Part shown: positions 11,101 through 32,000 of the stretch, piece by piece
Position numbering within the stretch: position 1 is the first letter of the stretch
Layout of the letters: each line of letters opens with the position of its first letter
Assembly: GCF_000020385.1 (NCBI RefSeq)
Contig: NC_010814.1
Coordinates: 2,700,001 to 2,732,000 of the forward strand
DNA length: 32,000 nt
From: Trichlorobacter lovleyi SZ
Lineage (GTDB): Bacteria; Desulfobacterota; Desulfuromonadia; Geobacterales; Pseudopelobacteraceae
Reading direction: 5' to 3'
Made by a program: the position numbers and the translations under genes
The notes under the pieces: generated by a model
Told to the model about the DNA's origin: nothing
Database searches by the model: none
The model's input: the letters and a program-made list of their open reading frames with translations, nothing else

Positions 11101-11276
11101 CACAGGGCAAGGGAGCGTTCAAACAGCCTGATCGCCTCGGGATAGCGCTTGACTTCAGTGGCCTTACTCCCCTCTTCCCAGAGGTTTTCCGCCTCGTTCT
11201 TACCGGCAAAGCCGGACGAACAGAAGTTGAACAGCAGCAGCAGGGAAAGAACGGGTATGACAACGCGACGGGTCAT
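8199..11276 (-). CDS. Secreted TPR-repeat protein with C-terminal CHAT (caspase-fold, clan CD) protease domain
   Basis: 1025 aa. Signal-peptide-like N-terminus MTRRVVIPVLSLLLLFNFCSSGFAG. Long array of TPR-like repeats (recurrent A..Y.EALxL). C-terminal CHAT signatures LIIVPDGILGTLPFE, HFATHA (His codon 8613-8615) and LVMLSACVTG (Cys codon 8463-8465). Confidence 0.85.
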   Translation of the reverse strand: MTRRVVIPVLSLLLLFNFCSSGFAGKNEAENLWEEGSKATEVKRYPEAIRLFERSLALCGYDVDCRWANLNGLGVVYDALDQNERARSYYEQALQLSRQRNNPEDLANDLLNLGALLYKGLEQHQRALPFLEESLKLYRQIRKADETALLLFHTGTVKTVLGRYPEAIRDLQESLGINRRLRNNAGISNALATLGQASNMSGNYNQAAGYYEEAIAIQRRANLEEDLCSSLNRKGLNEFDLHRIPAALAAFDEALRVAKRLGDKRQQANILNNIGVVYKGSGQYEQARSYYQQALILAQELGRKGMLATAGNNIGDLYAALGQQDRALASYQDALRINREIGARQEMATNLNNIAMVYYQTKRYDEAIRWHQQALELKRSIGNKLDIALGLSNLAAAYLFNGDPGTAEQLLNERRRLQIDKSGVNLRHPGLVEVYLQTGRYDQALALLQQQTPAALAGEQVVAEHEMQTGRALLGRGEYAGASRHLLKSYQLLEELRSSVAERGSFLTAGGGGGRFRTYRALTASVAEQALRGDPIVPELRNYGGGNAAAAFYFAEASKARTLIERVAESGRSSVASNSLPAVLREEELQLRQQLAALDAGRDQAVRGGAASYSQYQQQRQALHQRFERLIARLQREFPLYAAINYPRPVAAEQLPLAANELLLAYALGEDAGYLFVVRKGGVQRVVRIPLKRAALEEKIKNFLEPLTNRHQQDFSQPQAAELYRLLLAEGLSDARPTDRLIIVPDGILGTLPFEILALPGTASIKEAGYLGDRYAVSYYQSASLLALKRALPGGQPTRSLFALGNPDFGTTAGNQQGFRGLSVVPKQYGQPVLFPPLPETEAEVRRIAALLGTAIQPPDILLGSQATESMLRQSPLGGYRYLHFATHASLPGMIQEVNEPFILLSQRDKRSGSDGFLTLSEVLDLKLNAELVMLSACVTGVGKEVEGEGVANFARAFQSAGAGSVVVSLWEVASEPAVEYVTLFYGYLKQGKPHALALKLAREQMRKKYPNPFYWGVFVLHGEG

Positions 11277-11327
11277 GCAGTTACCCCCTGATGAAAAGCC
11301 TGTCTCAGACCTTGCAAGATGTCACCA

Positions 11328-14153
11328 TCACCGTACCTTCCCCACAGGGAACCCCTGCCCACTGATGGAGACCGTGGGAAACTGGGCACGTTTGAAAATC
11401 TTCTCTGCCAGATTCGGCACCTCATCCTCCACATAGGCGGCCAGATCGGTGGTTTTTATATAGCCGCTCCGCCCTTTGTCAGCCTTGCCCTGCAATCCCT
11501 GCACCAGAGTCCAGGTAAACAGCCCATGGCCCTGATAGCCCTCCAAGGCCTCCTGGACAGAGGTAGAGGCAGAAAGGATGGTGGAACCCACCGCACGGGA
11601 CAGCACCTTCATGGCGGTATCCTCACTCATACCGCGGGTCAGAAGGGCGGTCTGCATGGCCTGCCCCAGCTGACCGGCGTTGCAGGTATCGATCACGATC
11701 AGCTTCTTGGTGGAGGGTATGTTGGCCACCAGCTCTTTCAGCGCAGTCTGGGACAAGGCATCACTCTTCAGCTTTTGCGTACTGAGTGCACCAACATTGG
11801 AGGTAATCAGAAAATATTCACCTTCGTCAACCGTGCCGTGGCTGGCAATGTAGAGGATGAACAGGTCATCAGGATTGATGGCCTGGTAGCGTTGCAGGGC
11901 GCCGACAATCGCATCCCGGCTGGTGGCTTCCCGGGTAGTCAACGGGGTAACCCTGACCTCTTCAAACAGGCTGCTGGCCGCCGTGCGCAGGGTCTCGGCA
12001 AACAGATCGGCATCGGCCACGGCGTACTTGAGTTGCAACTTCGGATTACGGAATTCCTGTACACCGATCACCAGGGCATGCAGGGTTGGCTTGCGAATTG
12101 CAGAAAAACTGGCCTGCACCTGATGAACCGCCTCATTGCTCTGCATCGAGTTGTCGGCATTGAAGGCAATGGCCCGAATGGTGTTGCTGCCGGGGGAAAG
12201 CTTGAGGGTATAACTGCGATAGGTTGCATCGCCCCCCTCCTTCTGCACCGCCTTAAGCGAGCGGCTGCTGTCCAGCACGACGGCTGAGCCGTTCAGGAAC
12301 AGCCGCACATCACCAACACCGCCGCCCTGTTCCTCAAGCTTCAGAGTCAGTTTGAATGTCTCGTTGGCAGAACTGACAGCTGTCTGGACGATGCTGGCCC
12401 TGGGAGGCTGTTTGACATCGGCCAGGGTGCGGTACCCCTGCAACGAACCGCCGGCCAGGGCCAGCTTGACCAGGTCGGGTCGAAAGAAGGTCTCGCGGTA
12501 ATTCTCGATGCCATAGATGTTGCTGCCGACACGGACGTTTAGGTACTTATCGCCGTTGGCAGAGGCGTTGTAGTAGCCATCCGGGGTGATAATAATCCAT
12601 TCGCCATCTTCAAAGGTGTACAGATCAGCCAGCTGTTGTTTGGTTTTCCTGCTGCGCAGCTCAAGCTTGTGCCCTGTATCGTGCGTATAAAAATCACCCG
12701 TATTCCTGGTCAGAAAAATCATCCCCTGCAGCTGTCGGTAACGTTGCAGCTCCTGATAGCCGTCCTTCATGAACTCCGGGGGAACCTTGCGGTACAACTC
12801 GTGCGGGTCGAGCACCTCCCAGTCACCCCCCCCCAGGCCGCCGACCTTGGTCCCCTTCAAGCGTGACCGGGTGGTCACATTCTGTTGCTTCAGGGTGGCG
12901 GTCTCCAGATCCCACAGGTGAAACTTCAGCACGGCCTCTTTACGAGAGGCTGACCACTCCTCATGCCAGTTGAGTAGCCGGTTGCCGGAACACAACGAGC
13001 TTCTGAAACCGGCCGGCCTGACCCCAAAGCTCCTGACCAGCTCACCGGTCTGCGTCTGCCAGACCCGTACCCTGCCGTCATTAAACCCAACCCCCAGCAG
13101 TCCGTTGGCAGCAAGCGCATAGGGCCTCGCGTCATAGTTCAGTGATACATGCAGGTTCTCAAAAAGCAGTTTTCTCTCTGTGTACATGCCGTTTTTCAAC
13201 GGGGTGAGCAGCACCAGTTCCATGCGGGCTGCCTGGGGGGTATCGGTTCTATAGACATAGCCGACCAGCAGCCTGCCATCAGGTTCAAATCTGAAAAAGA
13301 GCTGTTCATCCCCGAAACCACCGATCACTTTTGTCTCTTTTATCAGCTCCCGCGGCGTATAGCTGAACACCGGCTGACCGGTTGCCAGATCGTACAGCTG
13401 TATGGCGCTTGAAGACCTCCCCCCCTGATAGGCCACCAGTTTTCCATCCGGTGAAAGCTTGAACTTAGCGCCATGAGAAATGGTTGGAATGACCAGCGAA
13501 CCTTTCCTGCGAACATTCAGGCTATCGTCATACAACACATAGCTAACAGTGCCATCCGGACCTGTGCCCTTGTGGAATACGCCGTAATAGCCGAACCCCA
13601 GATCGGTAACGCCATTGTTCTGGGTATAGATCTCATAGTCTTTATAGCGATTGATCTCTGGCAGGACCAGTTCTGAACCATCCTTCATGCTGTAGATTTT
13701 TATACCGAAAGAACCGTTAAACAGGTACTGACCGTCCTTACCGATGGCCGGATTCTGTAAAAACACGGGGCCTGCAAATCTGGGCAAGGTAATCGAACGC
13801 AGCTTTTTCCCATACAGATCATAGAGTTCGGCTGTTTTTTGATATAGAACCATGAAGGTGCTGTCATCGACAAAATAGATATTCGAGGCACGACCATATT
13901 CCGTTTGCAGCTTGATGGTCCTGATCTCCCGGCCGCTGGCCACCTCCCAGGTCTTCAGGTACCCCTCTGCCTCCTTGCTGACCAGATGACTGGCGCCCGG
14001 ATTGATGGCAACGAATTCGACGAGACCGGCATGCCCGGTTTGGGCAAAAACCTCCTGTTTGTCGGACGCCCATAAAGCCCCCGGCAACGTCCCCAGCATA
14101 AAGCAAAACACCACCGCAGTCAGCATCCAGATGGTTTGAAAGCTGCGCGCCAT
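11328..14153 (-). CDS. Secreted beta-propeller / Ig-like / peptidase C14 (caspase/orthocaspase-type) multidomain protein
   Basis: Start reassigned to ATG at 14153, preceded by GGAGGAG. This gives 941 aa beginning with the signal peptide MARSFQTIWMLTAVVFCFMLGTLPGALWA. The N-terminal two-thirds has repeated beta-strand-rich WD40/TolB-like segments (RVWQTQTGELVRSF, LSPDGKLVAY). An Ig-like segment follows (FKLTLKLEEQGGGVGDVRLFLNG). The C-terminal ~255 aa (about 11331-12095) is a caspase p20-like domain with HALVIGV, ASHG (His codon 11838-11840) and VIDTCNAG (Cys codon 11682-11684). Confidence 0.85.
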   Translation of the reverse strand: MARSFQTIWMLTAVVFCFMLGTLPGALWASDKQEVFAQTGHAGLVEFVAINPGASHLVSKEAEGYLKTWEVASGREIRTIKLQTEYGRASNIYFVDDSTFMVLYQKTAELYDLYGKKLRSITLPRFAGPVFLQNPAIGKDGQYLFNGSFGIKIYSMKDGSELVLPEINRYKDYEIYTQNNGVTDLGFGYYGVFHKGTGPDGTVSYVLYDDSLNVRRKGSLVIPTISHGAKFKLSPDGKLVAYQGGRSSSAIQLYDLATGQPVFSYTPRELIKETKVIGGFGDEQLFFRFEPDGRLLVGYVYRTDTPQAARMELVLLTPLKNGMYTERKLLFENLHVSLNYDARPYALAANGLLGVGFNDGRVRVWQTQTGELVRSFGVRPAGFRSSLCSGNRLLNWHEEWSASRKEAVLKFHLWDLETATLKQQNVTTRSRLKGTKVGGLGGGDWEVLDPHELYRKVPPEFMKDGYQELQRYRQLQGMIFLTRNTGDFYTHDTGHKLELRSRKTKQQLADLYTFEDGEWIIITPDGYYNASANGDKYLNVRVGSNIYGIENYRETFFRPDLVKLALAGGSLQGYRTLADVKQPPRASIVQTAVSSANETFKLTLKLEEQGGGVGDVRLFLNGSAVVLDSSRSLKAVQKEGGDATYRSYTLKLSPGSNTIRAIAFNADNSMQSNEAVHQVQASFSAIRKPTLHALVIGVQEFRNPKLQLKYAVADADLFAETLRTAASSLFEEVRVTPLTTREATSRDAIVGALQRYQAINPDDLFILYIASHGTVDEGEYFLITSNVGALSTQKLKSDALSQTALKELVANIPSTKKLIVIDTCNAGQLGQAMQTALLTRGMSEDTAMKVLSRAVGSTILSASTSVQEALEGYQGHGLFTWTLVQGLQGKADKGRSGYIKTTDLAAYVEDEVPNLAEKIFKRAQFPTVSISGQGFPVGKVR

Positions 14154-14179
14154 AGACTCCTCCAGTCGACACATCAAGT

Positions 14180-14482
14180 TCAACGTACCAGCCGCCATAA
14201 AATGCTGCCAACCACAATCACAAACGTTACCAACAGGGCCGCCACCACAAACCGGTGCGGAACAAATCCGGGATGCTGGCCACCACCTGCGGGAGTACCC
14301 CCGGCAGGAGATTTTCGGCGTCGCATACCCTGCAACAGTGCAGTTGTCAGGCCGCCGAACAAAAGGCTGAAGGCGAGAAAAAAAGCTGCACTGCCAGGCT
14401 GTTCTGCAGTGAACACAAGACCGGAAGTCACCAGGCTGAAGATGGTACAGCATGCGAAGACAACCAGCATGGCAATGCGCAT
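14180..14482 (-). CDS. Small predicted integral membrane protein (three hydrophobic helices), first gene of the caspase/CHAT operon
   Basis: 100 aa from ATG 14482, with AAGGGG 6 nt upstream. Three about 20-aa hydrophobic stretches are separated by a basic Gly/Pro-rich loop (MRRRKSPAGGTPAGGG). Ends 26 nt before the caspase gene start. No family recognised, so coding status rests on ORF, RBS and hydrophobicity only. Confidence 0.5.
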   Translation of the reverse strand: MRIAMLVVFACCTIFSLVTSGLVFTAEQPGSAAFFLAFSLLFGGLTTALLQGMRRRKSPAGGTPAGGGQHPGFVPHRFVVAALLVTFVIVVGSILWRLVR

Positions 14483-14623
14483 GACCATCCCCTTTCTTTA
14501 CACCGCATGAACTGCTCACCATGATAGCACAATCCTGGTGGTTTTCAGGGTTGGCTTGCAGATCTATCTGTTGCTGGTATAGTCGATGCTGCAATCTCAC
14601 ACAACAACACACGAGGATTCAAT

Positions 14624-15124
14624 ATGCAGACTGCCCGACTTGTCTGTTGCCTGTTGTCAATCATGCTGGCCGCATCTGGCCTGTCCCGGTCGGTAGCCGC
14701 CGCCGAACTGCCGGAAACGTGCCGTTTGCAACCGGTGAATGGCCGTTGCAAGGCGATGATAGAAAAATTCAGGTTTGATCAGGCCTGCGGGAAATGCGTT
14801 GCCTATTTTTACGACGGTTGTGGCCCGGTGGTACCTTTTGACAGCCTGGACGCCTGCCGGCAACTGTGTGAAGCAGCACAACCCGCACTGAAAAAGCGCG
14901 CCTCCGGCCTGTACTATGACCCGGTTGAGGATGACCCGCGTTATGCCGAGGTCTTCAGGAAGATTGATGCTGAGGTTCAAGAGGCACTTACCGGCCATCC
15001 GCAGCGGGGCAGCATGGGGTTCGTGCATCTGGTCTGGGAGACAAAGAAACGGATCTTGCTGCAGAAATACGGAATTGACTGGAAGACACCGGCGGAACTG
15101 AACCCGCAGGTCATGTTCGATTAG
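14624..15124 (+). CDS. Secreted protein with N-terminal BPTI/Kunitz-type protease inhibitor domain and an uncharacterised C-terminal domain
   Basis: 166 aa. GAGGA RBS 6 nt upstream. Signal peptide MQTARLVCCLLSIMLAASGLSRSVAAA. Cys spacing C33-x8-C42-x15-C58-x7-C66-x11-C78-x3-C82 (nt about 14720-14869) compares with the canonical Kunitz x8/x15/x7/x12/x3. Local matches to BPTI: GRCKAMIEKFRFD vs GPCKARIIRYFYN, YFYDGCG vs FVYGGCR, DACRQLC vs EDCMRTC. Confidence 0.7.
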   Translation: MQTARLVCCLLSIMLAASGLSRSVAAAELPETCRLQPVNGRCKAMIEKFRFDQACGKCVAYFYDGCGPVVPFDSLDACRQLCEAAQPALKKRASGLYYDPVEDDPRYAEVFRKIDAEVQEALTGHPQRGSMGFVHLVWETKKRILLQKYGIDWKTPAELNPQVMFD

Positions 15125-16359
15125 CCGGCAGCAGGGCTGTCATGCAGCGCCTTGACAACCGCTGCAACAACAGGGTCCCATTCCCCGGGTTCGGACTGGC
15201 GGAACAGCCGCATGTTCGGATACCAGCAGCACTGTTCCCCTGACAACCCCCAGCGCCAGTCCGGCGCAAACGGCACCAGCAGCCAGGTGGGCTTACCCAG
15301 TACGCCTGCCAGATGGGCCACAGCCGTATCAATGGTGATCACCAGATCAAGCCGCTCCAGCAAAGCCGCGGTATCGGCAAAATCCTGCACCAGCATGGTC
15401 AGGTCAACCATTGGCAGAGCAGGTTTTTCAACCGGCTCCCCCACCTGCAGAGACACCCACAGGGTACCGGTACAGGAGGCCAATTGTGCAAGCAGTGCGG
15501 CAGGCAGGCTGCGCCCCGGATCCGGATAGCGTTTGCCGGACCAACAGAGTCCAATCCGTTTGCTGACGTTGTCACCGGGCAGTACGCTCTGCCAGAACGG
15601 CAGCCGCGCGGCAGGCGTGGTCAGATACGGCACAACAGCCGGAATAGTCTCAAGGGTACTGCCCAGCAGGTACGGCAAGGACAGCAACGGCAGCTGGTAA
15701 TCAAAGTCAGTCAGATCCCGGCCGAACGGCAGTACCGTGATACCGGCGCCAAGGCTCTGCATCAGCGGGACCAGAGGAGGATGGCACTCGAACAGCACCT
15801 CTGCCCCCCGCTCCACCAGCAGCGGCAGATAGCGGCAGAACTGCAGGGTATCGCCAAAGCCCTGCTCGGCATAGATCAGGATGGTCTTGGCGGAGAGATC
15901 ACCACCAGACCAGCGGGGCTGGGAAAACTCACGCACCGGTGAGGTAAAGCGCCGTTTTTTCCAACGCCACTCATACTCTCTGAATCCGGCAGTGTAATTG
16001 CCTTGCAGCAACAGCAGCAGGGCATAATTCCAATGGGCCTCAGCATGATTCGGAGAGGCCTTCAACACCTTTGCGCATTCAACCAGGGCCTGCTGCACCT
16101 CTCCCTGCATCTGCAGACAGGTGGACAGGGCCACCCGGCTGTCATGCAACGAAGGGGCAAGTTGCAACGCCTGCTGATAACTTTTGACCGCCTGATCGAT
16201 AAAACCGAGTTCCAGCAACGTGTTGCCGCGGTTGTTCCAGAGCAGCGCCAGGGTGGGCCAGCGTCCGACCGCCTCATCGTACAGGGACAGGGCTTCATCA
16301 TAACGCCCGGCCTCGTGCAACGCTGCGCCTTCACGCATTATCTTTTCCAGCTCACCCAT
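15121..16359 (-). CDS. TPR-repeat protein with C-terminal glycosyltransferase family 9 (heptosyltransferase-like) domain
   Basis: 412 aa. N-terminal TPR repeats. C-terminal region with AEQGFGDTLQFCRYLPLL and ITIDTAVAHLAG motifs typical of the TPR+GT9-like family. AGGGG RBS. Starts 13 nt after the valS stop. Confidence 0.75.
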   Translation of the reverse strand: MGELEKIMREGAALHEAGRYDEALSLYDEAVGRWPTLALLWNNRGNTLLELGFIDQAVKSYQQALQLAPSLHDSRVALSTCLQMQGEVQQALVECAKVLKASPNHAEAHWNYALLLLLQGNYTAGFREYEWRWKKRRFTSPVREFSQPRWSGGDLSAKTILIYAEQGFGDTLQFCRYLPLLVERGAEVLFECHPPLVPLMQSLGAGITVLPFGRDLTDFDYQLPLLSLPYLLGSTLETIPAVVPYLTTPAARLPFWQSVLPGDNVSKRIGLCWSGKRYPDPGRSLPAALLAQLASCTGTLWVSLQVGEPVEKPALPMVDLTMLVQDFADTAALLERLDLVITIDTAVAHLAGVLGKPTWLLVPFAPDWRWGLSGEQCCWYPNMRLFRQSEPGEWDPVVAAVVKALHDSPAAG

Positions 16360-16372
16360 CGGCTACCCCTGG

Positions 16373-19066
16373 CTACTTCAGATTTCTGATCTTCTCCAGG
16401 CTTTCTTCCAGTACCGCCTTCTTTGCAGTAACGTCTGCCAGCTTGGCCTTTTCCTTGGCAACAATGTCAGCCGGAGCCCGGTCAACAAAGCTGGGATTCT
16501 CCAGTTTTTTCGAGAACTGCTCGATCTCTTTATCCAGCTTGGCGATCTCCTTCAGGAGCCGCTTCTCCTCTTCAGCCACATCCACCAGCCCCTTCAGCGG
16601 GACAAAGACCTGAAACCTGCCGGCCGGCTGCACAGAGGCATCTTCCGGCTTTTCCAGGTTACGCCCGATGGTCAGATCGGCCACCCGGGCCATGCTCCTG
16701 ATCTTTGATTCAAACAGTCGCGCCAGATCCTCGGCCTGCTGGGAACCTGTTGAAAGGATAACCGTAATTTCACGGGATGGAGGGACTTCCATCTCACCAC
16801 GAATGGTACGGATCGCCGAGATGACCTCCATCACCTGCTCCATCCGGCCGGCTGCGTCTTCAAACTGCCAGTCTTCACGGGGTTGCGGATAAGGGGCCAA
16901 CATGATGGATGGAGGCCAGTCGCCGCCTGATCCACGCAGATTGCAGCGGTCGCCCTTGGGCAGGGTCTGCCAGATCTCCTCAGTAATAAACGGCATGATC
17001 GGATGCAGCAGACGCAGCAGGTGTTCCAGCACGCTCCAGAGCACATACTGGGTAGTGCGGCGGCGCAGCGGATCATCACCGTACAGCTCCTGCTTGGACA
17101 GCTCCAGGTACCAGTCGCAGAACTCGCTCCAGGTAAACTGGTACAGCGTCATGGCTGCCTCGTTAAAACGGTACTCGTCAAGAGCCTGGTTGGTTGCACG
17201 GGCGGTTTCATTCAGACGGTGCAGGATCCATTCATCGGACTCGGTCAACCGCAGGTCTTCAAAAACCAGTTGATCCGGCTCAAAACCTTCCAGATTCATC
17301 ATGGTAAAGCGGGCCGCATTCCAGACCTTGTTGCAGAAATTGCGGTAACCGGAGATCCGCTCTTCAGCCAGCTTGATATCCCGACCCTGGGCGGCAAAAG
17401 CAGCCAGCGTAAAACGGAAGGCATCGGTACCGTACTGGTCGATCACCGTCAGCGGATCAATCACATTCCCCTTTGACTTGGACATCTTCTGGCCGTGGGC
17501 ATCCCGTACTAGGGCATGGATATAGACATCCTTGAACGGCACCTCATCCATGAAGTGCAGTCCCATCATCATCATGCGGGCTACCCAGAAGAAGAGGATG
17601 TCAAAGCCGGTCACCAGGGTTGCGGTGGGATAAAACCTTTTCAGCTCAGCGGTCTGATCAGGCCAGCCCATGGTGGAGAACGGCCAGAGTGCCGAAGAGA
17701 ACCAGGTGTCCAGCACGTCGGTTTCCTGGCGGAGTTCGTCACTGCCACACTGGCTGCAACTGGTCGGGTCTTCCATGGAAACGGTTATCTTGCCACAATG
17801 ATCGCAGAACCAGGCCGGGATACGGTGTCCCCACCAGATCTGACGCGAGATACACCAGTCCCGAATGTTCTCCATCCAGTCGTAATAGGTGTTTTCCCAC
17901 TGTTTGGGCAGGATGCGGGTACGACCATCCTTGACCGCCTGCAGCGCACGCTCGGCCAGCGGGCCAACCTTGACGTACCACTGCAGGGAGAGGTACGGCT
18001 CCACCACGGTCTTGCAACGGTAGCAGCCCCCCACCGACAGACCGTGATCGTCGATCTTCTCCAGCAGCCCTGCAACCTCAAGGTCCTCCACAATCCTGGT
18101 GCGGGCCTTGAAACGATCCAATCCTTCGTACTGATGTCCGGCAGCATTGATAATGCCCGACTCATCAAAGACATTGATCTTGTCCAGACCGTGGCGTGCC
18201 CCCACCTCAAAGTCGTTGAAATCATGGGCCGGGGTGATCTTGACCACACCGGTGCCGAACTCGCGGTCCACATACTCATCCGCAACCACCGGAATCTCAC
18301 GGTTCACCAGCGGCAGCAGCACCTTGGCGCCATGCAGATCGGCGTAGCGTTCATCTTCCGGATGCACCGCCACGGCGGTATCCCCCAGCATGGTCTCGGG
18401 CCGGGTGGTGGCCACGGTCAGGAAGCGGCCCGGCTGCCCCACCACCGGATAGCGGATATGCCAGAGGTGCCCCTTTTTCTCTTCATGCTCCACCTCGATA
18501 TCGGAAAGGGCGGTATGGCAGCGGGGACACCAGTTGATCAGGCGGTTATCGCGGTAGATCAACCCGTCCTCGTACAGTTTGACAAAGACCGTGCGCACCG
18601 CCTTGGACAGACCGGCATCCATGGTAAAGCGTTCCCGTTCCCAGTCACAGGAGGCACCCAGCCGCTTCAGTTGTCCAATGATCTGGCCACCCGACTCGGC
18701 CTTCCATTGCCAGACCCGCTCGATAAACGCCTCGCGCCCCAGATCATGACGATCCTTGCCTTCTGCAGCCAGTTGCCGCTCCACCACGTTCTGGGTGGCG
18801 ATACCGGCATGGTCGGTACCGGGCATCCAGAGCACGCTGTGACCGGTCATCCGCTTCCAGCGACAGAGGATATCCTGCAGGGTATTGTTGAGGGCATGCC
18901 CCATATGCAGGGCACCGGTGACGTTGGGCGGTGGGATGACAATACTGTAAGGTCTGCGGGGAGAGGCTTCATCAGCATGAAAATAGCCCTTTTCAGCCCA
19001 CTCGCCGTACCATTTTTTCTCTACCTCATGGGGTTCGTACCCCTTGGCCAGTTCCTTGTTGGACAT
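16373..19066 (-). CDS. valS: Valine--tRNA ligase
   Basis: Class I signatures PPPNVTGALHMGHA (HIGH) and KMSKSKGN (KMSKS). C-terminal coiled-coil arm. I prefer ATG at 19066 (GGGAA 6 nt upstream) over the GTG at 19069 used by the ORF track. Confidence 0.95.
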   Translation of the reverse strand: MSNKELAKGYEPHEVEKKWYGEWAEKGYFHADEASPRRPYSIVIPPPNVTGALHMGHALNNTLQDILCRWKRMTGHSVLWMPGTDHAGIATQNVVERQLAAEGKDRHDLGREAFIERVWQWKAESGGQIIGQLKRLGASCDWERERFTMDAGLSKAVRTVFVKLYEDGLIYRDNRLINWCPRCHTALSDIEVEHEEKKGHLWHIRYPVVGQPGRFLTVATTRPETMLGDTAVAVHPEDERYADLHGAKVLLPLVNREIPVVADEYVDREFGTGVVKITPAHDFNDFEVGARHGLDKINVFDESGIINAAGHQYEGLDRFKARTRIVEDLEVAGLLEKIDDHGLSVGGCYRCKTVVEPYLSLQWYVKVGPLAERALQAVKDGRTRILPKQWENTYYDWMENIRDWCISRQIWWGHRIPAWFCDHCGKITVSMEDPTSCSQCGSDELRQETDVLDTWFSSALWPFSTMGWPDQTAELKRFYPTATLVTGFDILFFWVARMMMMGLHFMDEVPFKDVYIHALVRDAHGQKMSKSKGNVIDPLTVIDQYGTDAFRFTLAAFAAQGRDIKLAEERISGYRNFCNKVWNAARFTMMNLEGFEPDQLVFEDLRLTESDEWILHRLNETARATNQALDEYRFNEAAMTLYQFTWSEFCDWYLELSKQELYGDDPLRRRTTQYVLWSVLEHLLRLLHPIMPFITEEIWQTLPKGDRCNLRGSGGDWPPSIMLAPYPQPREDWQFEDAAGRMEQVMEVISAIRTIRGEMEVPPSREITVILSTGSQQAEDLARLFESKIRSMARVADLTIGRNLEKPEDASVQPAGRFQVFVPLKGLVDVAEEEKRLLKEIAKLDKEIEQFSKKLENPSFVDRAPADIVAKEKAKLADVTAKKAVLEESLEKIRNLK

Positions 19067-19186
19067 CACGACTTCCCTGCCTTTACATGTTTTTACAGCG
19101 GATTGTGTTTATATACCGATGCAGCTGCCCCGGTCAAGGTTCTGCTCAAGCACGGTTCGCCAAGCAATTTTCATTAAAATTACCAT

Positions 19187-19215
19187 TGACCAACTAATCC
19201 GCAAATTGTTATCTT
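19187..19215 (+). promoter_or_regulatory. Candidate sigma70-type promoter upstream of the first precursor gene
   Basis: TTGACC (19187-19192), 17-nt spacer, TATCTT (19210-19215), about 65 nt upstream of ATG 19279. Pattern match only. Confidence 0.3.
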
Positions 19216-19278: not shown

Positions 19279-19608
19279 ATGCAGCATCACTCCATGCGCA
19301 ACCTGTTGGCCGGTCTCAGTATCACCACACTCATTGCCGGTATGGCATCAGTCTCAGCTGCCGAGACGGCGCCGGCAGCTCCTGCAGAAAACGGAAAGCC
19401 GGCCACAGAGTCGGGCCCCAGCGGCTGCGGCGGCATGAAAAAGTGCCCCAAGTGTGCTAAACATACAAGCGATGGTGCCAGTGGCTGCGGTGGGGCCATG
19501 AAGCAGCCGCAAGCAGAGCAACCTGCCCCGCCCAAAGGGGCCAGCGGCTGCGGTGGAGCATCCGGCTGCGGTGGCGGAACAAAGCCTGCCACGCCTCCCA
19601 AGCAATAA
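19279..19608 (+). CDS. sbtA: Cys-type precursor peptide of the SbtA (thio(seleno)oxazole RiPP / GeoRSP) family
   Basis: 109 aa. AAAGGA RBS 7 nt upstream. Hydrophobic signal-like leader MRNLLAGLSITTLIAGMASVSAAE. Low-complexity Pro/Ala/Gly/Lys-rich core with four S-G-C-G-G motifs (Cys50, 70, 91, 97) plus CPKC. Paralogous to the Sec-containing gene at 19848-20189 and upstream of an rSAM/SPASM enzyme. Confidence 0.8.
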   Translation: MQHHSMRNLLAGLSITTLIAGMASVSAAETAPAAPAENGKPATESGPSGCGGMKKCPKCAKHTSDGASGCGGAMKQPQAEQPAPPKGASGCGGASGCGGGTKPATPPKQ

Positions 19609-19676
19609 ATCGAACATGACGATTTGACAACCGAACTACTATTGCTAAAATCACTTGCAGGCGGTGTAGCCACCGC

Positions 19677-19828
19677 CCTAACAGGGCTGTAAAAAACGTA
19701 ATGAGGAAGGCCGGATACCAGACGCACGGAACACAGTGACTGAGACATAACAACCAGTTAGTCGAAGGAGCGAGTACCGCGCAACGCCGTAGACAGCCTC
19801 CGGAATAGTTTTTCAAAGCCCTGTTAAA
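19677..19828 (+). repeat. Copy A of a ~150-nt noncoding repeat with a long closing inverted repeat (REP/MITE-like or structured RNA)
   Basis: Gap-free 125-nt core (19692-19816) aligns by hand to 26316-26440 with 19 mismatches. TAACAGGGCT (19679-19688) is complementary to AGCCCTGTTA (19817-19826), and the helix extends to about 19 bp with 2 mismatches. Confidence 0.65.
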
Positions 19829-19847
19829 TCCACGCAGGAGGTTTGCT

Positions 19848-20189
19848 ATGGAGAAGGACCGGTTGAAGTCCATCCTGGCAGGAATGGGCATCGCCAGCCT
19901 CGTTGCAGGCATGGCGGTTGTTCCGTTCAACGCTCAGGGCGCGAGTGGTTGAGGCGGCAAGGAGGGTGCCGGGAGCACCCCGAAGAAGGAAGCCGGCACA
20001 AGTGGCTGAGGCGGTAAGAGCGGCGCCGGGAGCGCCGAGACCCCCAAAGACAAAGATGGCAAGCAGACCCCGGATGACAAGAAACCTGCAGAGAGCAAGC
20101 CTGCAGAAAAACCGGCTCCAAAGCCGGGCGGCAGCGGCTGAGGTTCAAGTGGTTGAGGCGGCTCAACCGGCGCCGGGAGCGCCAAGTAA
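19848..20189 (+). CDS. sbtA: Selenocysteine-type SbtA-family precursor peptide with four in-frame UGA (Sec) codons
   Basis: ATG 19848 with AGGAGG (19836-19841) 6 nt upstream. In-frame TGA at 19950, 20007, 20139 and 20154; TAA stop at 20187-20189. Translation with U for TGA: MEKDRLKSILAGMGIASLVAGMAVVPFNAQGASGUGGKEGAGSTPKKEAGTSGUGGKSGAGSAETPKDKDGKQTPDDKKPAESKPAEKPAPKPGGSGUGSSGUGGSTGAGSAK (113 aa). Each U occupies the Cys position of the SGCGG motif of the upstream paralogue. The leaders are homologous, and hairpins follow each UGA. Confidence 0.8.
19964..19980 (+). promoter_or_regulatory. SECIS-like hairpin 1
   Basis: GGGTGC-CGGGA-GCACCC (6-bp stem, 5-nt loop). It begins 11 nt after UGA-1 (19950-19952). 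Confidence 0.55.
20021..20037 (+). promoter_or_regulatory. SECIS-like hairpin 2
   Basis: CGGCGC-CGGGA-GCGCCG. It begins 11 nt after UGA-2 (20007-20009). Same loop as hairpin 1; the stem sequence differs but base pairing is preserved. Confidence 0.55.
20151..20168 (+). promoter_or_regulatory. SECIS-like hairpin 3 (candidate)
   Basis: GGTTGA-GGCGGC-TCAACC (6-bp stem, 6-nt loop). It begins 9 nt after UGA-3 (20139-20141), and its 5' arm contains UGA-4. Different loop from the other three, so less certain. Confidence 0.4.
20169..20183 (+). promoter_or_regulatory. SECIS-like hairpin 4
   Basis: GGCGC-CGGGA-GCGCC. It begins 12 nt after UGA-4 (20154-20156), with the same loop and register as hairpins 1 and 2. 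Confidence 0.55.
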
Positions 20190-20345
20190 AAGATCACGAT
20201 AGTTGTATGACCGGGCGGCAGGGTACACTCATCTCTGTCGCCCGTTGCTTAGACCAACCACCTATTTTTCAGGAGGCCCGCCATTTTCCCCACGACCCGA
20301 AAACTGCTGGGACAGGATGCCTGGAATCGTCTGATCGGCAAATCC

Positions 20346-21842
20346 TTGCATGAGCTTGATCCGGAAACCGTGCCCGCCCAGCTGGAAAAGGTGGCCGGCC
20401 TGACCCACCCGGAATGGTTGCCGGATCTGGCCCGGCTGGAGCTGGGCTGTCACCGGGCCATGAATATTCCGCTGCCCCAGCCAGAAGAGCTGCAGACCCT
20501 GACCATCAACCCCTCATTGCAACTGCTACCGGTTCCCTGGACACATCTGCTGACCCTGCTGACCTTTGGCAAAAAGCAGGATATGGAACGGGTTGAGCCG
20601 GGTGAAGAACTGGTGCTGATCTGGTCTGATCCGACAAACAGGAATCTGCGATTTGAAACGGCCCTGCCGGACCACCTGCTGGCATTGAAGATGGTGACCG
20701 AAGGGATAACCCCGGAGGAGGCGGCACAACAGGCAAACCAGCCGATTGCACTGTTCGATGCCGTGCTGTGGGATGCTGTGCGCAAAGGGGTCCTGCTGGC
20801 ACCGCTGTCGCGTCTGCGCCGTACCCCGGCGATTGCATCACAGGCGGTTGATAATCGTTTCGTTGCAGCCGAGGTGTTCACCCTGCAATGGCATCTGACC
20901 CAGAGTTGCGACCTGTCCTGCAAGCATTGTTACGACCGCAGCCAACGGGCAGCCTTCCCGTTTGACCGCGCCGTCACATTGATGCAGGAGCTGCGCGATT
21001 TCTGCTGGAGCCGCTTTGTACGACCCCAGGTTTCATTCAGCGGCGGCAATCCACTCCTGCATCCGGATTTCTACCGGATCTATCAGGCGGCAGCTGACCA
21101 CGGCCTGATGACCGCCATCCTCGGGAACGCCACCGAACGCAGCAACATTGAACGGCTAATGGCGATCCAGCGTCCGGTCTACTATCAGGTCAGTCTTGAA
21201 GGGCTGGAAGAACATAACGACAGCATCCGGGGAGAAGGCAACTTCAAACGGACGATTGCATTTCTTGAAATGTTGACTGAGCTGGGGGTGCCCAACATGG
21301 TGATGCTGACCCTGACCAGGAACAATCTTGATCAGGTGATCCCGTTGGCTGCAGTTCTGGAGGGTATTACCGGCGGATTGACCTTCAACCGCCTGGCCCT
21401 GTTCGGTGAGGGGGCGCGGCTGGCGCTGCCCACCCGTGAGGAATACAAGGCATTTCTTGAGCAGTATGTGGCAGCCATGCCGACCCACCCGGTGCTGGCA
21501 CTGAAAGACAGTCTGCTCAACGTAATCTACGATGACCGGGGCGAACCGTTGTTCGGCGGCTGCGCCGGATTCGGCTGCGGTGCCGCTTTCAACTTCATTG
21601 CCATCCTCTCCGATGGTGAGGTGCATGCCTGCCGAAAATTTCCTTCTCCCATCGGCAACATCCTGAAGCAGAGCCTTGAGGAGGTCTACAACGCTGAAAC
21701 GGCAGCACGTTATCGGGATGGTTCAACCGCCTGTCACGGCTGCAAACTGAAACCGGTCTGCGGTGGCTGCCTGGCGGTAACCGCCAGTTTTGGCCATGAT
21801 CCCCTGACCAGCAAAGACCCTTACTGCTTCAGGACAAAGTGA
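20346..21842 (+). CDS. sbtM: Radical SAM/SPASM peptide maturase of the SbtM (thio(seleno)oxazole modification) family
   Basis: CxxxCxxC cluster motif CDLSCKHC (nt 20907-20930). C-terminal SPASM-type Cys-rich region (GCAGFGCGAA..., CRKF, CHGCKLKPVCGGC). About 165-aa N-terminal extension precedes the rSAM core. Immediately follows two SG[C/U]GG precursor genes. The ORF-track start is a TTG at 20346; the true start may be upstream (see findings). Confidence 0.88.
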   Translation: MHELDPETVPAQLEKVAGLTHPEWLPDLARLELGCHRAMNIPLPQPEELQTLTINPSLQLLPVPWTHLLTLLTFGKKQDMERVEPGEELVLIWSDPTNRNLRFETALPDHLLALKMVTEGITPEEAAQQANQPIALFDAVLWDAVRKGVLLAPLSRLRRTPAIASQAVDNRFVAAEVFTLQWHLTQSCDLSCKHCYDRSQRAAFPFDRAVTLMQELRDFCWSRFVRPQVSFSGGNPLLHPDFYRIYQAAADHGLMTAILGNATERSNIERLMAIQRPVYYQVSLEGLEEHNDSIRGEGNFKRTIAFLEMLTELGVPNMVMLTLTRNNLDQVIPLAAVLEGITGGLTFNRLALFGEGARLALPTREEYKAFLEQYVAAMPTHPVLALKDSLLNVIYDDRGEPLFGGCAGFGCGAAFNFIAILSDGEVHACRKFPSPIGNILKQSLEEVYNAETAARYRDGSTACHGCKLKPVCGGCLAVTASFGHDPLTSKDPYCFRTK

Positions 21843-26305: not shown

Positions 26306-26452
26306 CAGGCTGCTGAAAAACGTCATGAGGAAGCACGGCTACAAGGCGCACGGCGCACAGCGACTGAGACATAACAGATAGTTAGGCGAAGGAGCGAGCA
26401 CCGCGCAACGTAGTAGACGGGCTCCGTAATAGTTTTTCAACAACCTGCTAGA
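26301..26452 (+). repeat. Copy B of the ~150-nt noncoding repeat
   Basis: Core 26316-26440 matches 19692-19816. The closing helix CTAGCAGGCTGCTGAAAAAC (26302-26321) pairs with 26432-26451 at 18 of 20 positions. Its left end overlaps the TAG stop (26303-26305) of the upstream gene. Confidence 0.65.
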
Positions 26453-29552: not shown

Positions 29553-29657
29553 GCCGCCACCGTAAACGCCATAACTATTCAAAATAACTAAATTTTTTAA
29601 GCATAACTAAAAATCATTGAACGAACCTTTACTACCATCAAAAACAGGAGAACACGC

Positions 29658-32000
29658 ATGAAGAAAATCAACAAGTTCAGAAAGGTCATGGCCGCCAACC
29701 GCGGCGAGATCGCCATCCGGATCTTCCGGGCCTGTACCGAGCTGGGGATCAGCACGGTGGCGCTCTATTCCGAAGAGGACAAACTCTCCCTGCACCGCTA
29801 CAAGGCAGATGAGGCCTATCTGATCGGCAAAGGCAAGGCGCCGATTGACGCCTACCTGGGGATTGACGAGATCATCGCACTGGCACTGAAGGCCGATGTA
29901 GACGCGATCCACCCCGGCTACGGTTTTCTGGCGGAAAATGCTGAATTTGCCGAGAAATGCGAGGCAGCCGGTATCACCTTTATCGGTCCCACGGCTGAAA
30001 TGCAGCGTGCCCTGGGAGACAAGGTGGCAGGCCGCAAGGCTGCCATGTCTGCAGAAGTGCCGGTCGTGCCGGGCACCGAAGACCCGATTGAGAAAGAAGA
30101 AGAGGCGCTGAAGTTTGCCAAGGACTCCGGCTATCCGATCATCATCAAGGCGGCAGCCGGTGGCGGCGGCCGCGGTATGCGGGTGGCCCGCAACAAGAAA
30201 GAGCTGCTGGAAGGGCTGGTTGCTGCCCGCAGTGAGGCCAAGGCCGCCTTTGGCAACGCCACCGTCTTTCTGGAGCGCTACATCGAGAACCCCAAGCATA
30301 TCGAAGTGCAGGTCATGGGTGACAACTACGGCAATCTGGTGCATTTTTTCGAGCGTGACTGCTCGATCCAGCGCCGCCACCAGAAGGTGGTTGAGTTCGC
30401 GCCGTCACTCTGCCTGACCCAGCAGCAGCGGGAAGAGATCTGCACCGCCGCCCTGAAGATCGCCGGTCAGGTCAAATACCGAAACGCCGGTACGGTCGAG
30501 TTCCTGGTGGATCAGGAGGGCAGTTTCTACTTCATTGAGATGAACCCCCGCATCCAGGTCGAGCATACCGTCACCGAGATGATCACCGGCCGCAACCTGG
30601 TGCAGAATCAGATCCTGGTGGCCCAGGGCTACAAGCTGTCCGACCCGGAGATCAACATCCCGTCCCAGAGCGCCATTGATATGCGCGGCTATGCCATCCA
30701 GTGCCGGATCACCACCGAAGATCCCTCCAACAACTTTGCCCCGGACTTCGGCACCCTGACCACCTACCGTTCCGCTGCCGGCGCAGGTATCCGTCTGGAT
30801 GCGGGCAACGCCTTTACCGGCGCCCAGATCACCCCCCATTACGACTCACTGCTGGTCAAGGTCAGCTCCTGGGGTCTCAACTTCAAGGATGCCGCCTCGA
30901 TCATGCACCGCGCCCTGCAGGAGTTCCGGGTCCGTGGTGTCAAGACCAACATCGGCTTTCTGGAGAACGTGATCACCCACTCGGTCTTCCTGAACGGCAA
31001 GTGCGACACCTCCTTTATCGAGAAGCACCCCGAGCTGCTGCAGTTCCGCGAGAAGAAAGACCGTGCCAGCAAAGTGCTCTCCTTCCTGGGGGACGTGATC
31101 GTCAACGGCTCACCCGGCATTGTCAAACCGCTGAAATCGGCCGACCTGATTGAAGCAAAAGTACCGGAAATCGATTACACCCAGCCCCGCCCCTCCGGCT
31201 CCCGTGACCTGTTCATGAAACTGGGTGCCGAAGGGCTTTCCAAGTGGATTCTGGAGCAGAAAAAGCTGTTGATCACCGATACCACCATGCGGGATGCCCA
31301 CCAGTCCAACCTGGCCACCCGGGTACGGACCCATGACCTGCTCAAGATCGCCGAGCCCACCTCCTACCTGGGGGCCGATCTGTTCTCTCTGGAATGTTGG
31401 GGCGGCGCCACCTTTGACGTCTCGATGCGCTTCCTGCGTGAAGATCCCTGGCAGCGGCTGCACAAGCTTTCCGAAGCGATCCCCAACATCCTGTTCCAGA
31501 TGCTGCTGCGCGGCTCCAACGCCGTGGGTTACACCAACTATCCGGACAACGTGGTACAGAAGTTCGTGGAAGAGGCAGCCAACTCCGGCGTCGACATATT
31601 CCGGGTCTTTGACTCCCTGAACTGGACCACCGGCATGCAGGTGGCCATGGAGGCGGTCCGCAAGTCCGGCAAGATCTGCGAGGCGGCCATCTGCTACACC
31701 GGCGACATCACCGATCCCAAGCGGGACAAGTATCCGCTGGAATACTACGTCAACATGGCCAAAGAACTGGAGAAGATGGGCGCTCATATCCTGGCCATCA
31801 AGGATATGGCCGGCCTGTTGAAGCCGCTGGCCGCCTACAAGCTGGTCAAGGCCCTGAAAGAAAACATCGGCATCCCGGTCCACCTGCACACCCACGACAC
31901 TTCATCCAACGGCTCCGCCATGCTGCTGAAGGCCAGCGAGGCCGGGGTGGATATCGTGGATGCCGCCCTCTCCTCCCTGTCCGGCCTGACCGCCCAGCCC
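29658..32000 (+). CDS. pyc: Pyruvate carboxylase (single-chain; biotin carboxylase and carboxyltransferase domains visible), 3' end outside the window
   Basis: ATG 29658 with AGGAG 7 nt upstream. The frame is open for 781 codons to the window edge, so it is absent from the ORF track. MKKINKFRKVMAANRGEIAIRIFRACTELGI, IIKAAAGGGGRGMR, EMNPRIQVEHTVTE (biotin carboxylase), then LLITDTTMRDAHQS...FSLECWGGATFD...HLHTHDTS (carboxyltransferase). The minus-strand ORFs in this span are antisense shadows. Confidence 0.95.
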   Translation, partial: MKKINKFRKVMAANRGEIAIRIFRACTELGISTVALYSEEDKLSLHRYKADEAYLIGKGKAPIDAYLGIDEIIALALKADVDAIHPGYGFLAENAEFAEKCEAAGITFIGPTAEMQRALGDKVAGRKAAMSAEVPVVPGTEDPIEKEEEALKFAKDSGYPIIIKAAAGGGGRGMRVARNKKELLEGLVAARSEAKAAFGNATVFLERYIENPKHIEVQVMGDNYGNLVHFFERDCSIQRRHQKVVEFAPSLCLTQQQREEICTAALKIAGQVKYRNAGTVEFLVDQEGSFYFIEMNPRIQVEHTVTEMITGRNLVQNQILVAQGYKLSDPEINIPSQSAIDMRGYAIQCRITTEDPSNNFAPDFGTLTTYRSAAGAGIRLDAGNAFTGAQITPHYDSLLVKVSSWGLNFKDAASIMHRALQEFRVRGVKTNIGFLENVITHSVFLNGKCDTSFIEKHPELLQFREKKDRASKVLSFLGDVIVNGSPGIVKPLKSADLIEAKVPEIDYTQPRPSGSRDLFMKLGAEGLSKWILEQKKLLITDTTMRDAHQSNLATRVRTHDLLKIAEPTSYLGADLFSLECWGGATFDVSMRFLREDPWQRLHKLSEAIPNILFQMLLRGSNAVGYTNYPDNVVQKFVEEAANSGVDIFRVFDSLNWTTGMQVAMEAVRKSGKICEAAICYTGDITDPKRDKYPLEYYVNMAKELEKMGAHILAIKDMAGLLKPLAAYKLVKALKENIGIPVHLHTHDTSSNGSAMLLKASEAGVDIVDAALSSLSGLTAQP

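Follow-up and report, generated by a model that had tools for sequence, protein, structure and literature searches.

The closest described relatives of the genes considered here belong to the Sbt system, in which precursor peptides (SbtA) are modified by a radical S-adenosylmethionine (SAM)/SPASM enzyme (SbtM). In vitro, SbtM converts cysteine- and selenocysteine-containing peptides into thio(seleno)oxazoles, with a mass change of −4 Da (PMC9204691, PMC11002830). The reaction is a SAM-dependent loss of four hydrogens from Gly-Cys or Gly-selenocysteine, with hydrogen abstraction at C-beta; the product is an aromatic thio(seleno)oxazole that absorbs at about 304 nm, the enzyme contains Fe and S sufficient for three clusters, and a minimal synthetic peptide serves as a substrate in vitro (PMC9204691). 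Reviews cite Lewis et al. (2021, Biochemistry 60:3347) for the chemistry of SbtM. The same heterocycle is present in bufferins, which carry signal peptides of the general secretory (Sec) pathway, accumulate in the periplasm, bind Cu(I) very tightly (KD near 7e-20 M) and protect against copper. Bufferins also provide a precedent for ribosomally made peptides that are modified after translation (RiPPs) that use the Sec pathway, as DybA does for the lipoprotein pathway (PMC13056109). Here we analyze a three-gene sbt locus in a 32,000-nt stretch of the Trichlorobacter lovleyi SZ genome (the whole stretch is referred to as the window). A preliminary description of this locus had stated that SbtM makes thio(seleno)oxazole from cysteine and selenocysteine in vitro, and both papers bear this out (PMC9204691, PMC11002830).

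Judged from its sequence, the locus is a thio(seleno)oxazole SbtA/SbtM system, and thus belongs to a family that is already curated and characterized in vitro. What the locus itself adds to the catalogue of such systems is nil, given that SbtA and SbtM are curated families and that in vitro characterization exists for the enzyme of a 94%-identical relative. It is of value for the corrected gene models and for a testable hypothesis about the biology of the Sbt family. Current gene calls cut the selenocysteine precursor to 34 or 97 amino acids (aa), miss the cysteine paralogue as a member and dispute the start of sbtM. Such errors bear on selenoproteome counts and on the design of expression constructs.

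The maturase and its two precursors

The product of gene 3, read from a short open reading frame (ORF), scored 681.2 bits against the SbtM model TIGR04082 (cut-off 350), covering profile positions 24-516 of 516. The runner-up NCBIfam family, whose own cut-off is 400, reached 154 bits, and the 25 best NCBIfam families listed for the protein include no model of an anaerobic sulfatase maturase. The preliminary description had proposed a comparison with hidden Markov models (HMMs) as a check of its assignment, and this comparison (681 bits) places the enzyme in SbtM and not in another radical SAM family. The closest database protein, with 94% identity, carries the NCBI name Trichlorobacter lovleyi SbtM. 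Pfam identifies PF04055 and PF13186. The radical SAM motif CxxxCxxC is located at C209/C213/C216 (20907-20930) and is nearly invariant in 79 homologues, in which C427, C432, C450, C484, C487, C493, C496 and C515 are invariant; the SPASM domain spans approximately residues 432-488 (21576-21746). Because of the 94% identity to the T. lovleyi protein, we infer that SbtM of the window carries out the −4 Da conversion of Gly-Cys and Gly-selenocysteine. The description of the SbtA/SbtM family reportedly goes back to Haft and Basu in 2011, and the enzyme assayed in vitro was reportedly SbtM of G. lovleyi.

Gene 3 had previously been placed at 20346-21842. Its identification as a radical SAM/SPASM protein holds, but the TTG at 20346 is too far downstream to be the start. 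The TIGR04082 profile aligns from its position 24 at residue 5 of the ORF that begins with this TTG; the in-frame peptide encoded upstream, IFPTTRKLLGQ, is conserved, and protein P0010 begins with MFPTTRKLLGQ. Among the aligned loci, this position is occupied by ATG in L003 and L005, by ATC in L002 and by ATT in the window, L001, L004 and L010; in every case, a G/A-rich stretch resembling a Shine-Dalgarno sequence lies 6-8 nt upstream. The public sbtM lengths in the same species disagree (498, 511 or 519 aa), the length of 519 aa being found in one call. Because of the profile offset, the conserved upstream peptide, the Shine-Dalgarno spacing and the 519-aa public call, sbtM most likely starts at the non-canonical ATT at 20283 and encodes 519 aa.

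To place the locus among its relatives, we used 80 loci with SbtM relatives from species-representative genomes, out of at least 577 stretches with a match. They represent Geobacterales, Desulfobacterales, Syntrophales, Nitrospirota/Thermodesulfovibrionales and one metagenome-assembled genome of Acidobacteria; T. lovleyi is not among them, and five further loci of the window's own species (L081-L085) were reached through gene 1. SbtA-like ORFs are present in 69 of the 80 loci, mostly directly upstream of the maturase gene; the exceptions L046, L050, L051, L060, L064 and L065 have them downstream of that gene or on the other strand. The window shows the common arrangement, with gene 2 ending at 20189 and sbtM beginning at 20283, so that the maturase gene directly follows an SbtA-type precursor gene, and orthologues of gene 2 are located directly upstream of SbtM in most related loci.

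Gene 2 passes the SbtA model TIGR04081, an N-terminal model of 27 residues, with a score of 39.2 (cut-off 30.5). Its in-frame TGA codons at 19950, 20007, 20139 and 20154 correspond to U35, U54, U98 and U103, and the surrounding residues read S-G-U-G-G, S-G-U-G-G, S-G-U-G-S and S-G-U-G-G, as in the four S-G-U-G-(G/S) motifs noted earlier. The frame contains neither TAA nor TAG until the TAA at 20187, and its ending, GAGSAK, is conserved.

Each of the four UGA codons is followed by a hairpin or candidate hairpin of the selenocysteine insertion sequence (SECIS) type (Table 1). In the related loci, a hairpin of at least 5 bp that starts 14-18 nt downstream was found in 89% of 133 distinct UGA contexts, compared with 17% for homologous Cys codons and 17% for shuffled sequences. 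The downstream folding energy was also lower for selenocysteine than for cysteine contexts (p = 3e-7). When 38 first-UGA contexts were aligned, compensatory changes were seen in four of the six SECIS stem pairs; these contexts were picked by eye from 64 first-UGA contexts and are somewhat selected, the unselected statistic being the hairpin count over the 133 contexts. Within the stem, the third (synonymous) position of a Gly codon covaries with the first position of an Ala/Thr codon, for which selection at the protein level offers no explanation. This synonymous covariation suggests that the peptide G-A-G-S that follows each U is largely a protein-level shadow of the SECIS. Two types of hairpin are found repeatedly, an internal one with the loop CGGGA or AGGUG and a C-terminal one, GUAGCGC-GGUC-GCGCUAC, that spans the stop codon. 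The GGUC loop of the latter is also the apical loop of the E. coli fdhF SECIS. Because the arrangement of precursor and maturase recurs (69 of 80) and the hairpins downstream of the TGA codons are conserved, the architecture of the locus is not due to chance.

Public gene calls shorten gene 2 to 34 aa, with UGA1 as the stop codon (19848-19952), or to 97 aa, with UGA3 as the stop codon (19848-20141). The corresponding calls in the loci of the same species (L081-L085) are at 10570-10674 and 10570-10863, and the 34-aa fragment carries the new Pfam family PF27804, GSU1558_StbA-like. The 97-aa version, with two selenocysteines and an untranslated C-terminal tandem pair, deserves consideration because it is called in two of the five loci of the species (both NCBI assemblies), and one public annotation ends the gene at UGA3. 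Furthermore, only 15 nt separate UGA3 from UGA4, and of the four codons UGA3 is the least certain, since the equivalent hairpin is poorly conserved in the orthologue L010. These points count against four selenocysteines, but a conserved selenocysteine site with its own SECIS lies five codons past UGA3, where it would be pointless if translation stopped: the UGA4 site is the conserved C-terminal selenocysteine position of L001-L005 and L010. A hairpin of 7-8 bp, whose 5′ arm contains UGA4, begins 11-12 nt after UGA3; the frame stays open to the TAA at 20187 with its conserved GAGSAK ending, and the cysteine paralogue has an equivalent tandem pair. Termination at UGA3 thus seems improbable to us, and the 34-aa and 97-aa calls are, on the evidence of the frame and its hairpins, truncations of a 113-aa product.

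The translation of gene 1 agrees with the earlier reading of four S-G-C-G-G motifs, with Cys50, Cys70, Cys91 and Cys97 encoded at 19426, 19486, 19549 and 19567. It also contains an additional C56-P-K-C59 (Cys codons at 19444 and 19453), which had not been stressed before. In the alignment of gene 1 orthologues, GCGGM-x-KCP-x-C is invariant (conserved M-x-x-C-P-x-C). The preliminary description had assigned both precursors to the SbtA family. This applies to gene 2 (39.2 against 30.5), but on the curated model gene 1 scores only 21.9, below the cut-off of 30.5. The two products are nevertheless paralogous (BLASTP with U read as C: 34% identity over 82 aa, E 1e-9), and both translations contain the hydrophobic N-terminal segment and the motif layout, two isolated copies and then a C-terminal tandem pair, that had been pointed out before. 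On the basis of motif, layout and context, we treat gene 1 as a divergent cysteine-type paralogue rather than a member of curated SbtA.

Orthologues of gene 1 were found in L004, L010, L086 and L087. The family is tiny, comprising only about four genuine clusters: when 1.84 billion cluster representatives were searched with a profile, three real relatives emerged, and a word-indexed search also returned three. Two other hits of the profile search, P0124 and P0126, were rejected because they are long translations of low-complexity repeats. The gene 1 type precedes the selenocysteine precursor in the window, L004, L010 and L086, and is the sole precursor before SbtM in L087; in L086 it stands beside a truncated SbtA call, on a short contig that ends before any sbtM. 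One could envision that gene 1 encodes an unrelated small secreted Cys-rich (CPxC) protein that merely adjoins the locus and is not a substrate of SbtM. Its score under the curated cut-off and a promoter candidate of its own would be in keeping with this. We consider it very unlikely, however, because gene 1 has its N-terminal segment, its SG-C-GG motif and its arrangement of two single motifs plus a tandem pair in common with gene 2, the few relatives all reside beside sbt genes (with the gene 1 type as the only precursor in L087), and Cys peptides are modified by SbtM in vitro (PMC9204691, PMC11002830).

Among the 80 loci, all-Cys precursors of other types occur alone in seven, and two selenocysteine precursors occur together in three. 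These distributions indicate that the cysteine and selenocysteine forms are interchangeable substrates of SbtM, as far as can be read from the gene content. We speculate that the cysteine paralogue may maintain the function of the system when selenium is scarce.

Probable precursor export, proposed substrate binding and possible function

A further question raised in the preliminary description was whether the precursor N-terminus is a signal peptide or a RiPP leader. In all 76 precursor ORFs examined, one to three or more K/R residues are followed by at least 18 residues without charge (median 24). A small-x-small site was found in 40 of the 76, and 32 have a lipobox-like motif ending in Cys at approximately residues 17-34, commonly around residue 29. 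In the window, the predicted signal peptides span approximately residues 1-27 of gene 1, with a site between VSA and AE, and residues 1-31 of gene 2, with a site between AQG and AS. From these patterns we conclude fairly firmly that the N-terminus of SbtA is primarily an export signal, which would answer the question of signal versus leader.

Lipoprotein-type precursors are a separate observation outside the window. Many SbtA-like precursors in loci of Desulfobacterales, Nitrospirota and Syntrophales (L025-L080; for example, at 1823 in L027, 3566 in L029 and 1429 in L074) have the lipobox L-x-G-C and carry motifs such as S-S-U-S-G or T-S-C-S-G. These precursors are predicted to become selenooxazole or thiooxazole lipoproteins.

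Under classical RiPP logic, the N-terminal segment would instead be a leader of about 30 residues that is bound by SbtM and removed by an unlinked protease, and the product would be a diffusible "selenobiotic" or "selenobacteriocin" with an antibiotic or signaling role. The name "selenobiotic family peptide radical SAM maturase", used by JGI and in older NCBI records, and the term "selenobacteriocin" in a 2026 selenoproteome review reflect this idea. It also gains from a subdomain of SbtM that resembles a RiPP recognition element (RRE) and from an N-terminus conserved enough for a dedicated HMM. On the other hand, no protease, ABC exporter or immunity gene is conserved in the 80 loci, a lipobox at a fixed position in 32 of the 76 precursors is not explained by a pure recognition leader, and the cores differ from those of bacteriocins in being long, repetitive, rich in Lys and Pro, and of variable length. 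In addition, a minimal peptide is modified in vitro (PMC9204691). We therefore give the leader hypothesis little credence; the precursors resemble exported proteins, and in many lineages lipoproteins, rather than antibiotics released by leader cleavage.

The AlphaFold model of the 519-aa SbtM, built with a 79-sequence alignment, has a pLDDT (predicted local distance difference test) of 89.7. Its best matches among PDB folds are CteB (5WGG), SuiB (5V1Q), SkfB (6EFN) and PqqE (6C8V), with E values of 1e-13 to 1e-10. The N-terminal domain comprises approximately residues 1-178 (20283-20816). When the first 180 residues were modeled alone (pLDDT 90.6), only three PDB matches were significant, 3DEE and two TglI entries, all of them partner proteins of oxidative enzymes that depend on multinuclear non-heme iron (MNIOs). 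The match to 3DEE (NGO1945 of N. gonorrhoeae) had an E value of 5e-7 and TM scores of 0.67/0.61 over 194 columns. The 3DEE protein is a DUF2063+RRE partner ("PME type 1") of MNIOs that install 5-thiooxazoles in oxazolin, gonophorin, fontiphorin and bufferins. The predicted fold of the putative substrate-binding domain of SbtM therefore resembles that of the partners in O2-dependent, copper-protective thiooxazole systems. In the papers examined that treat both systems, a set without the primary SbtM paper, the resemblance is not noted.

Taken together, we consider it likely that the precursors are modified in the cytoplasm and exported by the Sec pathway, giving a periplasmic thio/seleno-oxazole polypeptide that probably binds soft metals. 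SbtM would bind SbtA through its N-terminal PME-like domain (a DUF2063-like helical part and an RRE-like part) and modify each SG(C/U)G site in two rounds of SAM-dependent hydrogen abstraction at C-beta. The modified, flexible chain would then be exported by the general Sec pathway, and general signal peptidases would trim about 27-31 residues (predicted cleavage after residue 27 of 109 for gene 1 and residue 31 of 113 for gene 2). Export would be of the signal-peptidase-I type here and of the lipoprotein type in many other lineages. We propose that no dedicated protease or transporter is linked to the locus because the general Sec pathway and signal peptidases suffice. The mature products would be flexible periplasmic chains of about 80 residues in which Pro, Lys, Ala and Gly are abundant; each would bear four thiolate or selenolate oxazoles, to which the cysteine paralogue would add its CPxC.

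As for function, we prefer the binding of soft metals of the Cu(I) type, although we advance it tentatively, because the same heterocycle in bufferins binds Cu(I) and because G-G-M-x-x-C-P-x-C is conserved in the cysteine paralogue. The main alternative to metal binding is periplasmic redox or selenium handling: with the same biosynthesis and export, the product might be a redox buffer or antioxidant, a selenium store or means of detoxification, or an electron shuttle. Selenolates are strong reductants, the family is found mainly in anaerobic metal- or sulfur-respiring lineages (Geobacterales, Desulfobacterales, Thermodesulfovibrionales, Syntrophales), the CPxC of the cysteine paralogue is also a redox motif, and linkage to metal-homeostasis genes was not found in the 80 loci or in the scans of the window. 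We think such a role rather unlikely, given that the only characterized peptides with the same heterocycle listed in the papers examined are described as copper binders, and a selenium-specific role is at odds with the common occurrence of all-Cys versions.

Several observations speak against our proposal of an exported, metal-binding product. The natural end products and functions of the Sbt family are stated to be unknown (PMC9204691), and we infer the mature product, its location and its metal binding. The export call derives from sequence heuristics and comparative patterns and not from a signal-peptide predictor. The N-terminus of SbtA is more conserved than ordinary signal peptides, being recognized across phyla by the 27-residue HMM, and it may also serve recognition by SbtM. 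In the N-terminal domain of SbtM, Pfam finds nothing even at E = 10, and a profile of 18 N-terminal domains searched against the PDB sequences did not retrieve 3DEE, giving only chance matches (E >0.6). The link to DUF2063/PME proteins is thus at the level of the predicted fold only; a sequence-level signal is reported to be absent for the "PME type 2" partners as well (PMC12452194). None of selA, selB, selC and selD is located within the 32-kb window. Finally, an insertion in the 5′ untranslated region (UTR) of gene 2, described below, could impair expression of this gene in the species.

Expression signals and surroundings of the locus

The candidate control elements are listed with the genes in Table 1. 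The −35 element of the gene 2 promoter, in the form ATTTGAC, is invariant, and a TA-rich −10-like hexamer is present, in eight loci; the same holds for L086. Upstream of gene 1, TTGACC/TTGATC and TATCTTGA are common to the window and L004. Close to where the gene 2 transcript is predicted to begin, the short hairpin has a counterpart of different sequence at the homologous position in several loci (clearly in L002-L005), as read by eye from the alignment, and may act as an mRNA 5′ stabilizer or a regulator site.

Table 1. Positions and characteristics of genes and candidate regulatory elements at the sbt locus (window coordinates)
Feature	Position	Strand	Description	Basis or remark
Promoter candidate, gene 1	19186-19215	+	sigma-70-like, TTGACC-18-TATCTT	weak, 9/12 consensus matches
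Gene 1	19279-19608	+	Cys-type SbtA-like precursor, 109 aa	read and translated directly
Promoter candidate, gene 2	19624-19651	+	sigma-70-like, TTGACA-16-TAAAAT, TG-extended	strong, 11/12 matches (consensus scan)
Short hairpin near predicted 5′ end of gene 2 transcript	19660-19677	+	GGCGGTG-tagc-CACCGCC	
MITE-like insertion, gene 2 5′UTR	19681-19824	+	144 nt, 17-nt terminal inverted repeats, TA/TA flanks	
Shine-Dalgarno sequence, gene 2	19836-19841	+	AGGAGG	direct reading, conserved in alignment
Gene 2	19848-20189	+	Sec-type (selenocysteine) SbtA precursor, 113 aa, four selenocysteines	translated with TGA as U
SECIS-type hairpin, UGA1	19964-19980	+	GGGUGC-CGGGA-GCACCC, 14 nt after UGA 19950	compensatory changes in 4/6 pairs of consensus structure
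SECIS-type hairpin, UGA2	20021-20037	+	CGGCGC-CGGGA-GCGCCG, 14 nt after UGA 20007	z = -2.1
Candidate SECIS, UGA3	20151-20168	+	GGUUGAG-GCGG-CUCAACC, 11-12 nt after UGA 20139	57-nt fold z = -2.0
SECIS-type hairpin, UGA4	20169-20183	+	GGCGC-CGGGA-GCGCC, 15 nt after UGA 20154, about 30 nt after UGA3	
Terminator/attenuator-like hairpin between sbtA and sbtM	20212-20244	+	12-bp stem	T-run degraded in window
Shine-Dalgarno sequence, sbtM	20271-20276	+	AGGAGG	6 nt before ATT 20283
sbtM (gene 3)	20283-21842	+	519-aa radical SAM/SPASM maturase, predicted ATT start	HMM, Pfam, start-codon comparison

The 144-nt insertion in the leader of gene 2 has the features of a miniature inverted-repeat transposable element (MITE). 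Its termini are identical at 15 of 17 positions, it folds as one long hairpin (z = −4.4), and it is absent from seven other aligned loci and from L086. A second copy, 85% identical, is located at approximately 26306-26448, between a DUF3553-like gene and a rotamase gene; in the same species, this site is filled in L081 (17038-17162), with TAG duplicated, and empty in L085 (near 17025). By these features the insertion is a MITE-like mobile element. We had also considered a riboswitch in the leader of about 195 nt, and this was rejected: Rfam gave nothing at its gathering thresholds, and the extra 144 nt are an insertion with inverted repeats. Even at E values up to 10, the only two Rfam matches were insignificant ones (E 0.34 and 6.2) to long non-coding RNA models from insects.

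The terminator- or attenuator-like hairpin between sbtA and sbtM is conserved at 9-12 bp across loci and appears in the alignment as GGCGGCAGG...CCTGCCGCC. L003 and L005 show a compensatory G-to-A/C-to-T pair, and a T-rich tract follows the hairpin in L002, L003, L005 and L010. A strong sbtA promoter, this hairpin and an ATT start codon on sbtM would together tune expression toward much precursor and little enzyme.

With respect to neighboring genes, clustering of all ORFs of the 80 loci identified no conserved neighbor besides SbtA and SbtM in more than 16 loci. The commonest other cluster, found in 16 of the 80, matches the trpG/pabA-like gene of the window in size and position (the cluster itself was not scanned), and represents lineage-specific synteny. 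No protease, transporter, ABC exporter, immunity, metal or selenium gene is conserved near sbt across the 80 loci. In the window, the locus is flanked by valS and, on the opposite side, by lhgO, trpG, tex and trpE, and scans of the window ORFs gave the same outcome as the earlier remark that no protease, transporter or selenium-metabolism gene is adjacent. No sulfatase gene is present in the window. The model for MNIOs (DUF692) had no match among the 20 scanned flanking ORFs and the three sbt proteins, nor was a DoxX gene found there.

Several features of the flanks are recorded here for completeness. Strains of the same species differ downstream of trpG, beyond approximately 14400 in L082, L083 and L084, so that this flank is variable: in L082 and L084, a 929-aa unannotated gene and an ODP/lactamase_B-like gene stand in the place of tex, and in L083 a Transposase_mut gene and a NACHT-like gene do so. 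Upstream of valS, a cluster at 8199-16359, mostly on the minus strand, resembles a conflict or signaling module and has no relation to sbt. It encodes a 1025-aa TPR/CHAT protein, a caspase-like protein (Peptidase_C14) of about 941-1094 aa with faint beta-propeller matches, a 166-aa Kunitz/BPTI-domain protein and a 412-aa TPR protein. Three ORFs that encode 150-261 aa at the window's right end, 29607-30380 (−), 30701-31153 (+) and 31110-31895 (−), have no NCBIfam match at E <= 1e-5. A 553-aa ORF at 17516-19177 (+), antisense to valS, almost certainly reflects no more than a spurious open frame within a GC-rich gene.

Comparison with described systems

The window shares with the described Sbt system an equivalog-level enzyme, the SG-U-G motif, a SECIS directly after the UGA and the order of precursor followed by maturase. 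It differs from that system in several respects. The literature speaks of "at least two" selenocysteines (PMC9204691), whereas the precursor of the window has four, and the window adds an all-Cys CPxC precursor outside the curated model, an ATT start and a MITE in the 5′UTR.

Anaerobic sulfatase-maturating enzymes offer a mechanistic parallel, to which the discoverers of SbtM have themselves pointed (PMC9204691): these radical SAM/SPASM enzymes also oxidize Cys through hydrogen abstraction at C-beta, giving a thioaldehyde-like intermediate. The product of SbtM, however, is a retained thio/seleno-oxazole and not formylglycine, and the window has no sulfatase neighbor. As in CteB, SuiB, SkfB and PqqE, an N-terminal peptide-binding domain precedes the radical SAM barrel of SbtM, which leads into a SPASM domain carrying auxiliary clusters. 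The sequence identity to these enzymes is 16-20%, and the N-terminal domain of SbtM resembles the MNIO partners and not a plain PqqD-type RRE. CteB, SuiB, SkfB and PqqE form thioether or C-C crosslinks, not heterocycles. The RiPP-lipoproteins of the DybA type are modified in the cytoplasm and then enter the general lipoprotein pathway (PMC13056109), a route to which the lipobox-like motif in 32 of the 76 SbtA-like precursors corresponds. Both precursors of the window, unlike DybA, have sites of the signal-peptidase-I type and no lipobox, and enzyme and chemistry differ as well.

The most instructive comparison is with the bufferin/captophorin systems (BufABC, oxazolin, fontiphorin, gonophorin), which consist of an MNIO (DUF692) and a DUF2063 partner. 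In these systems, a 5-thiooxazole (about 305 nm) is formed from Cys in Gly/Lys-rich repeats of precursors with Sec signals; for Sbt, copper binding is predicted, and the predicted fold of the SbtM N-terminal domain matches the partners 3DEE and TglI. The catalysts are different: an O2-dependent MNIO with a separate partner in one case, and in the other an O2-independent radical SAM/SPASM enzyme fused to a partner-like domain. Sbt, moreover, uses selenocysteine, and no DUF692 or DoxX gene is present at the window locus. As no match to the MNIO model was found, the locus is not a member of the bufferin/captophorin group and, by analogy, would be only a functional counterpart of it.

If the proposal is true, anaerobes can reach the same metal-binding heterocycle by an independent enzymatic route, in which selenium serves as an upgrade, and selenooxazole lipoproteins would be a new kind of selenoprotein. 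More tentatively than for metal binding as such, we suggest that Sbt could be an anaerobic radical-SAM version of the bufferin/captophorin metal defense. In this version, a module with the partner fold would be fused to the catalyst, which would allow the 5-thiooxazole, and here the 5-selenooxazole as well, to be made in the absence of O2. The carriers would sequester Cu(I) or other soft metals in the periplasm, as Sec-exported polypeptides in Geobacterales and as lipoproteins in lineages of Desulfobacterota and Nitrospirota, and the locus described here would encode a selenium-dependent form with four selenocysteines and a selenium-independent Cys/CPxC form side by side.

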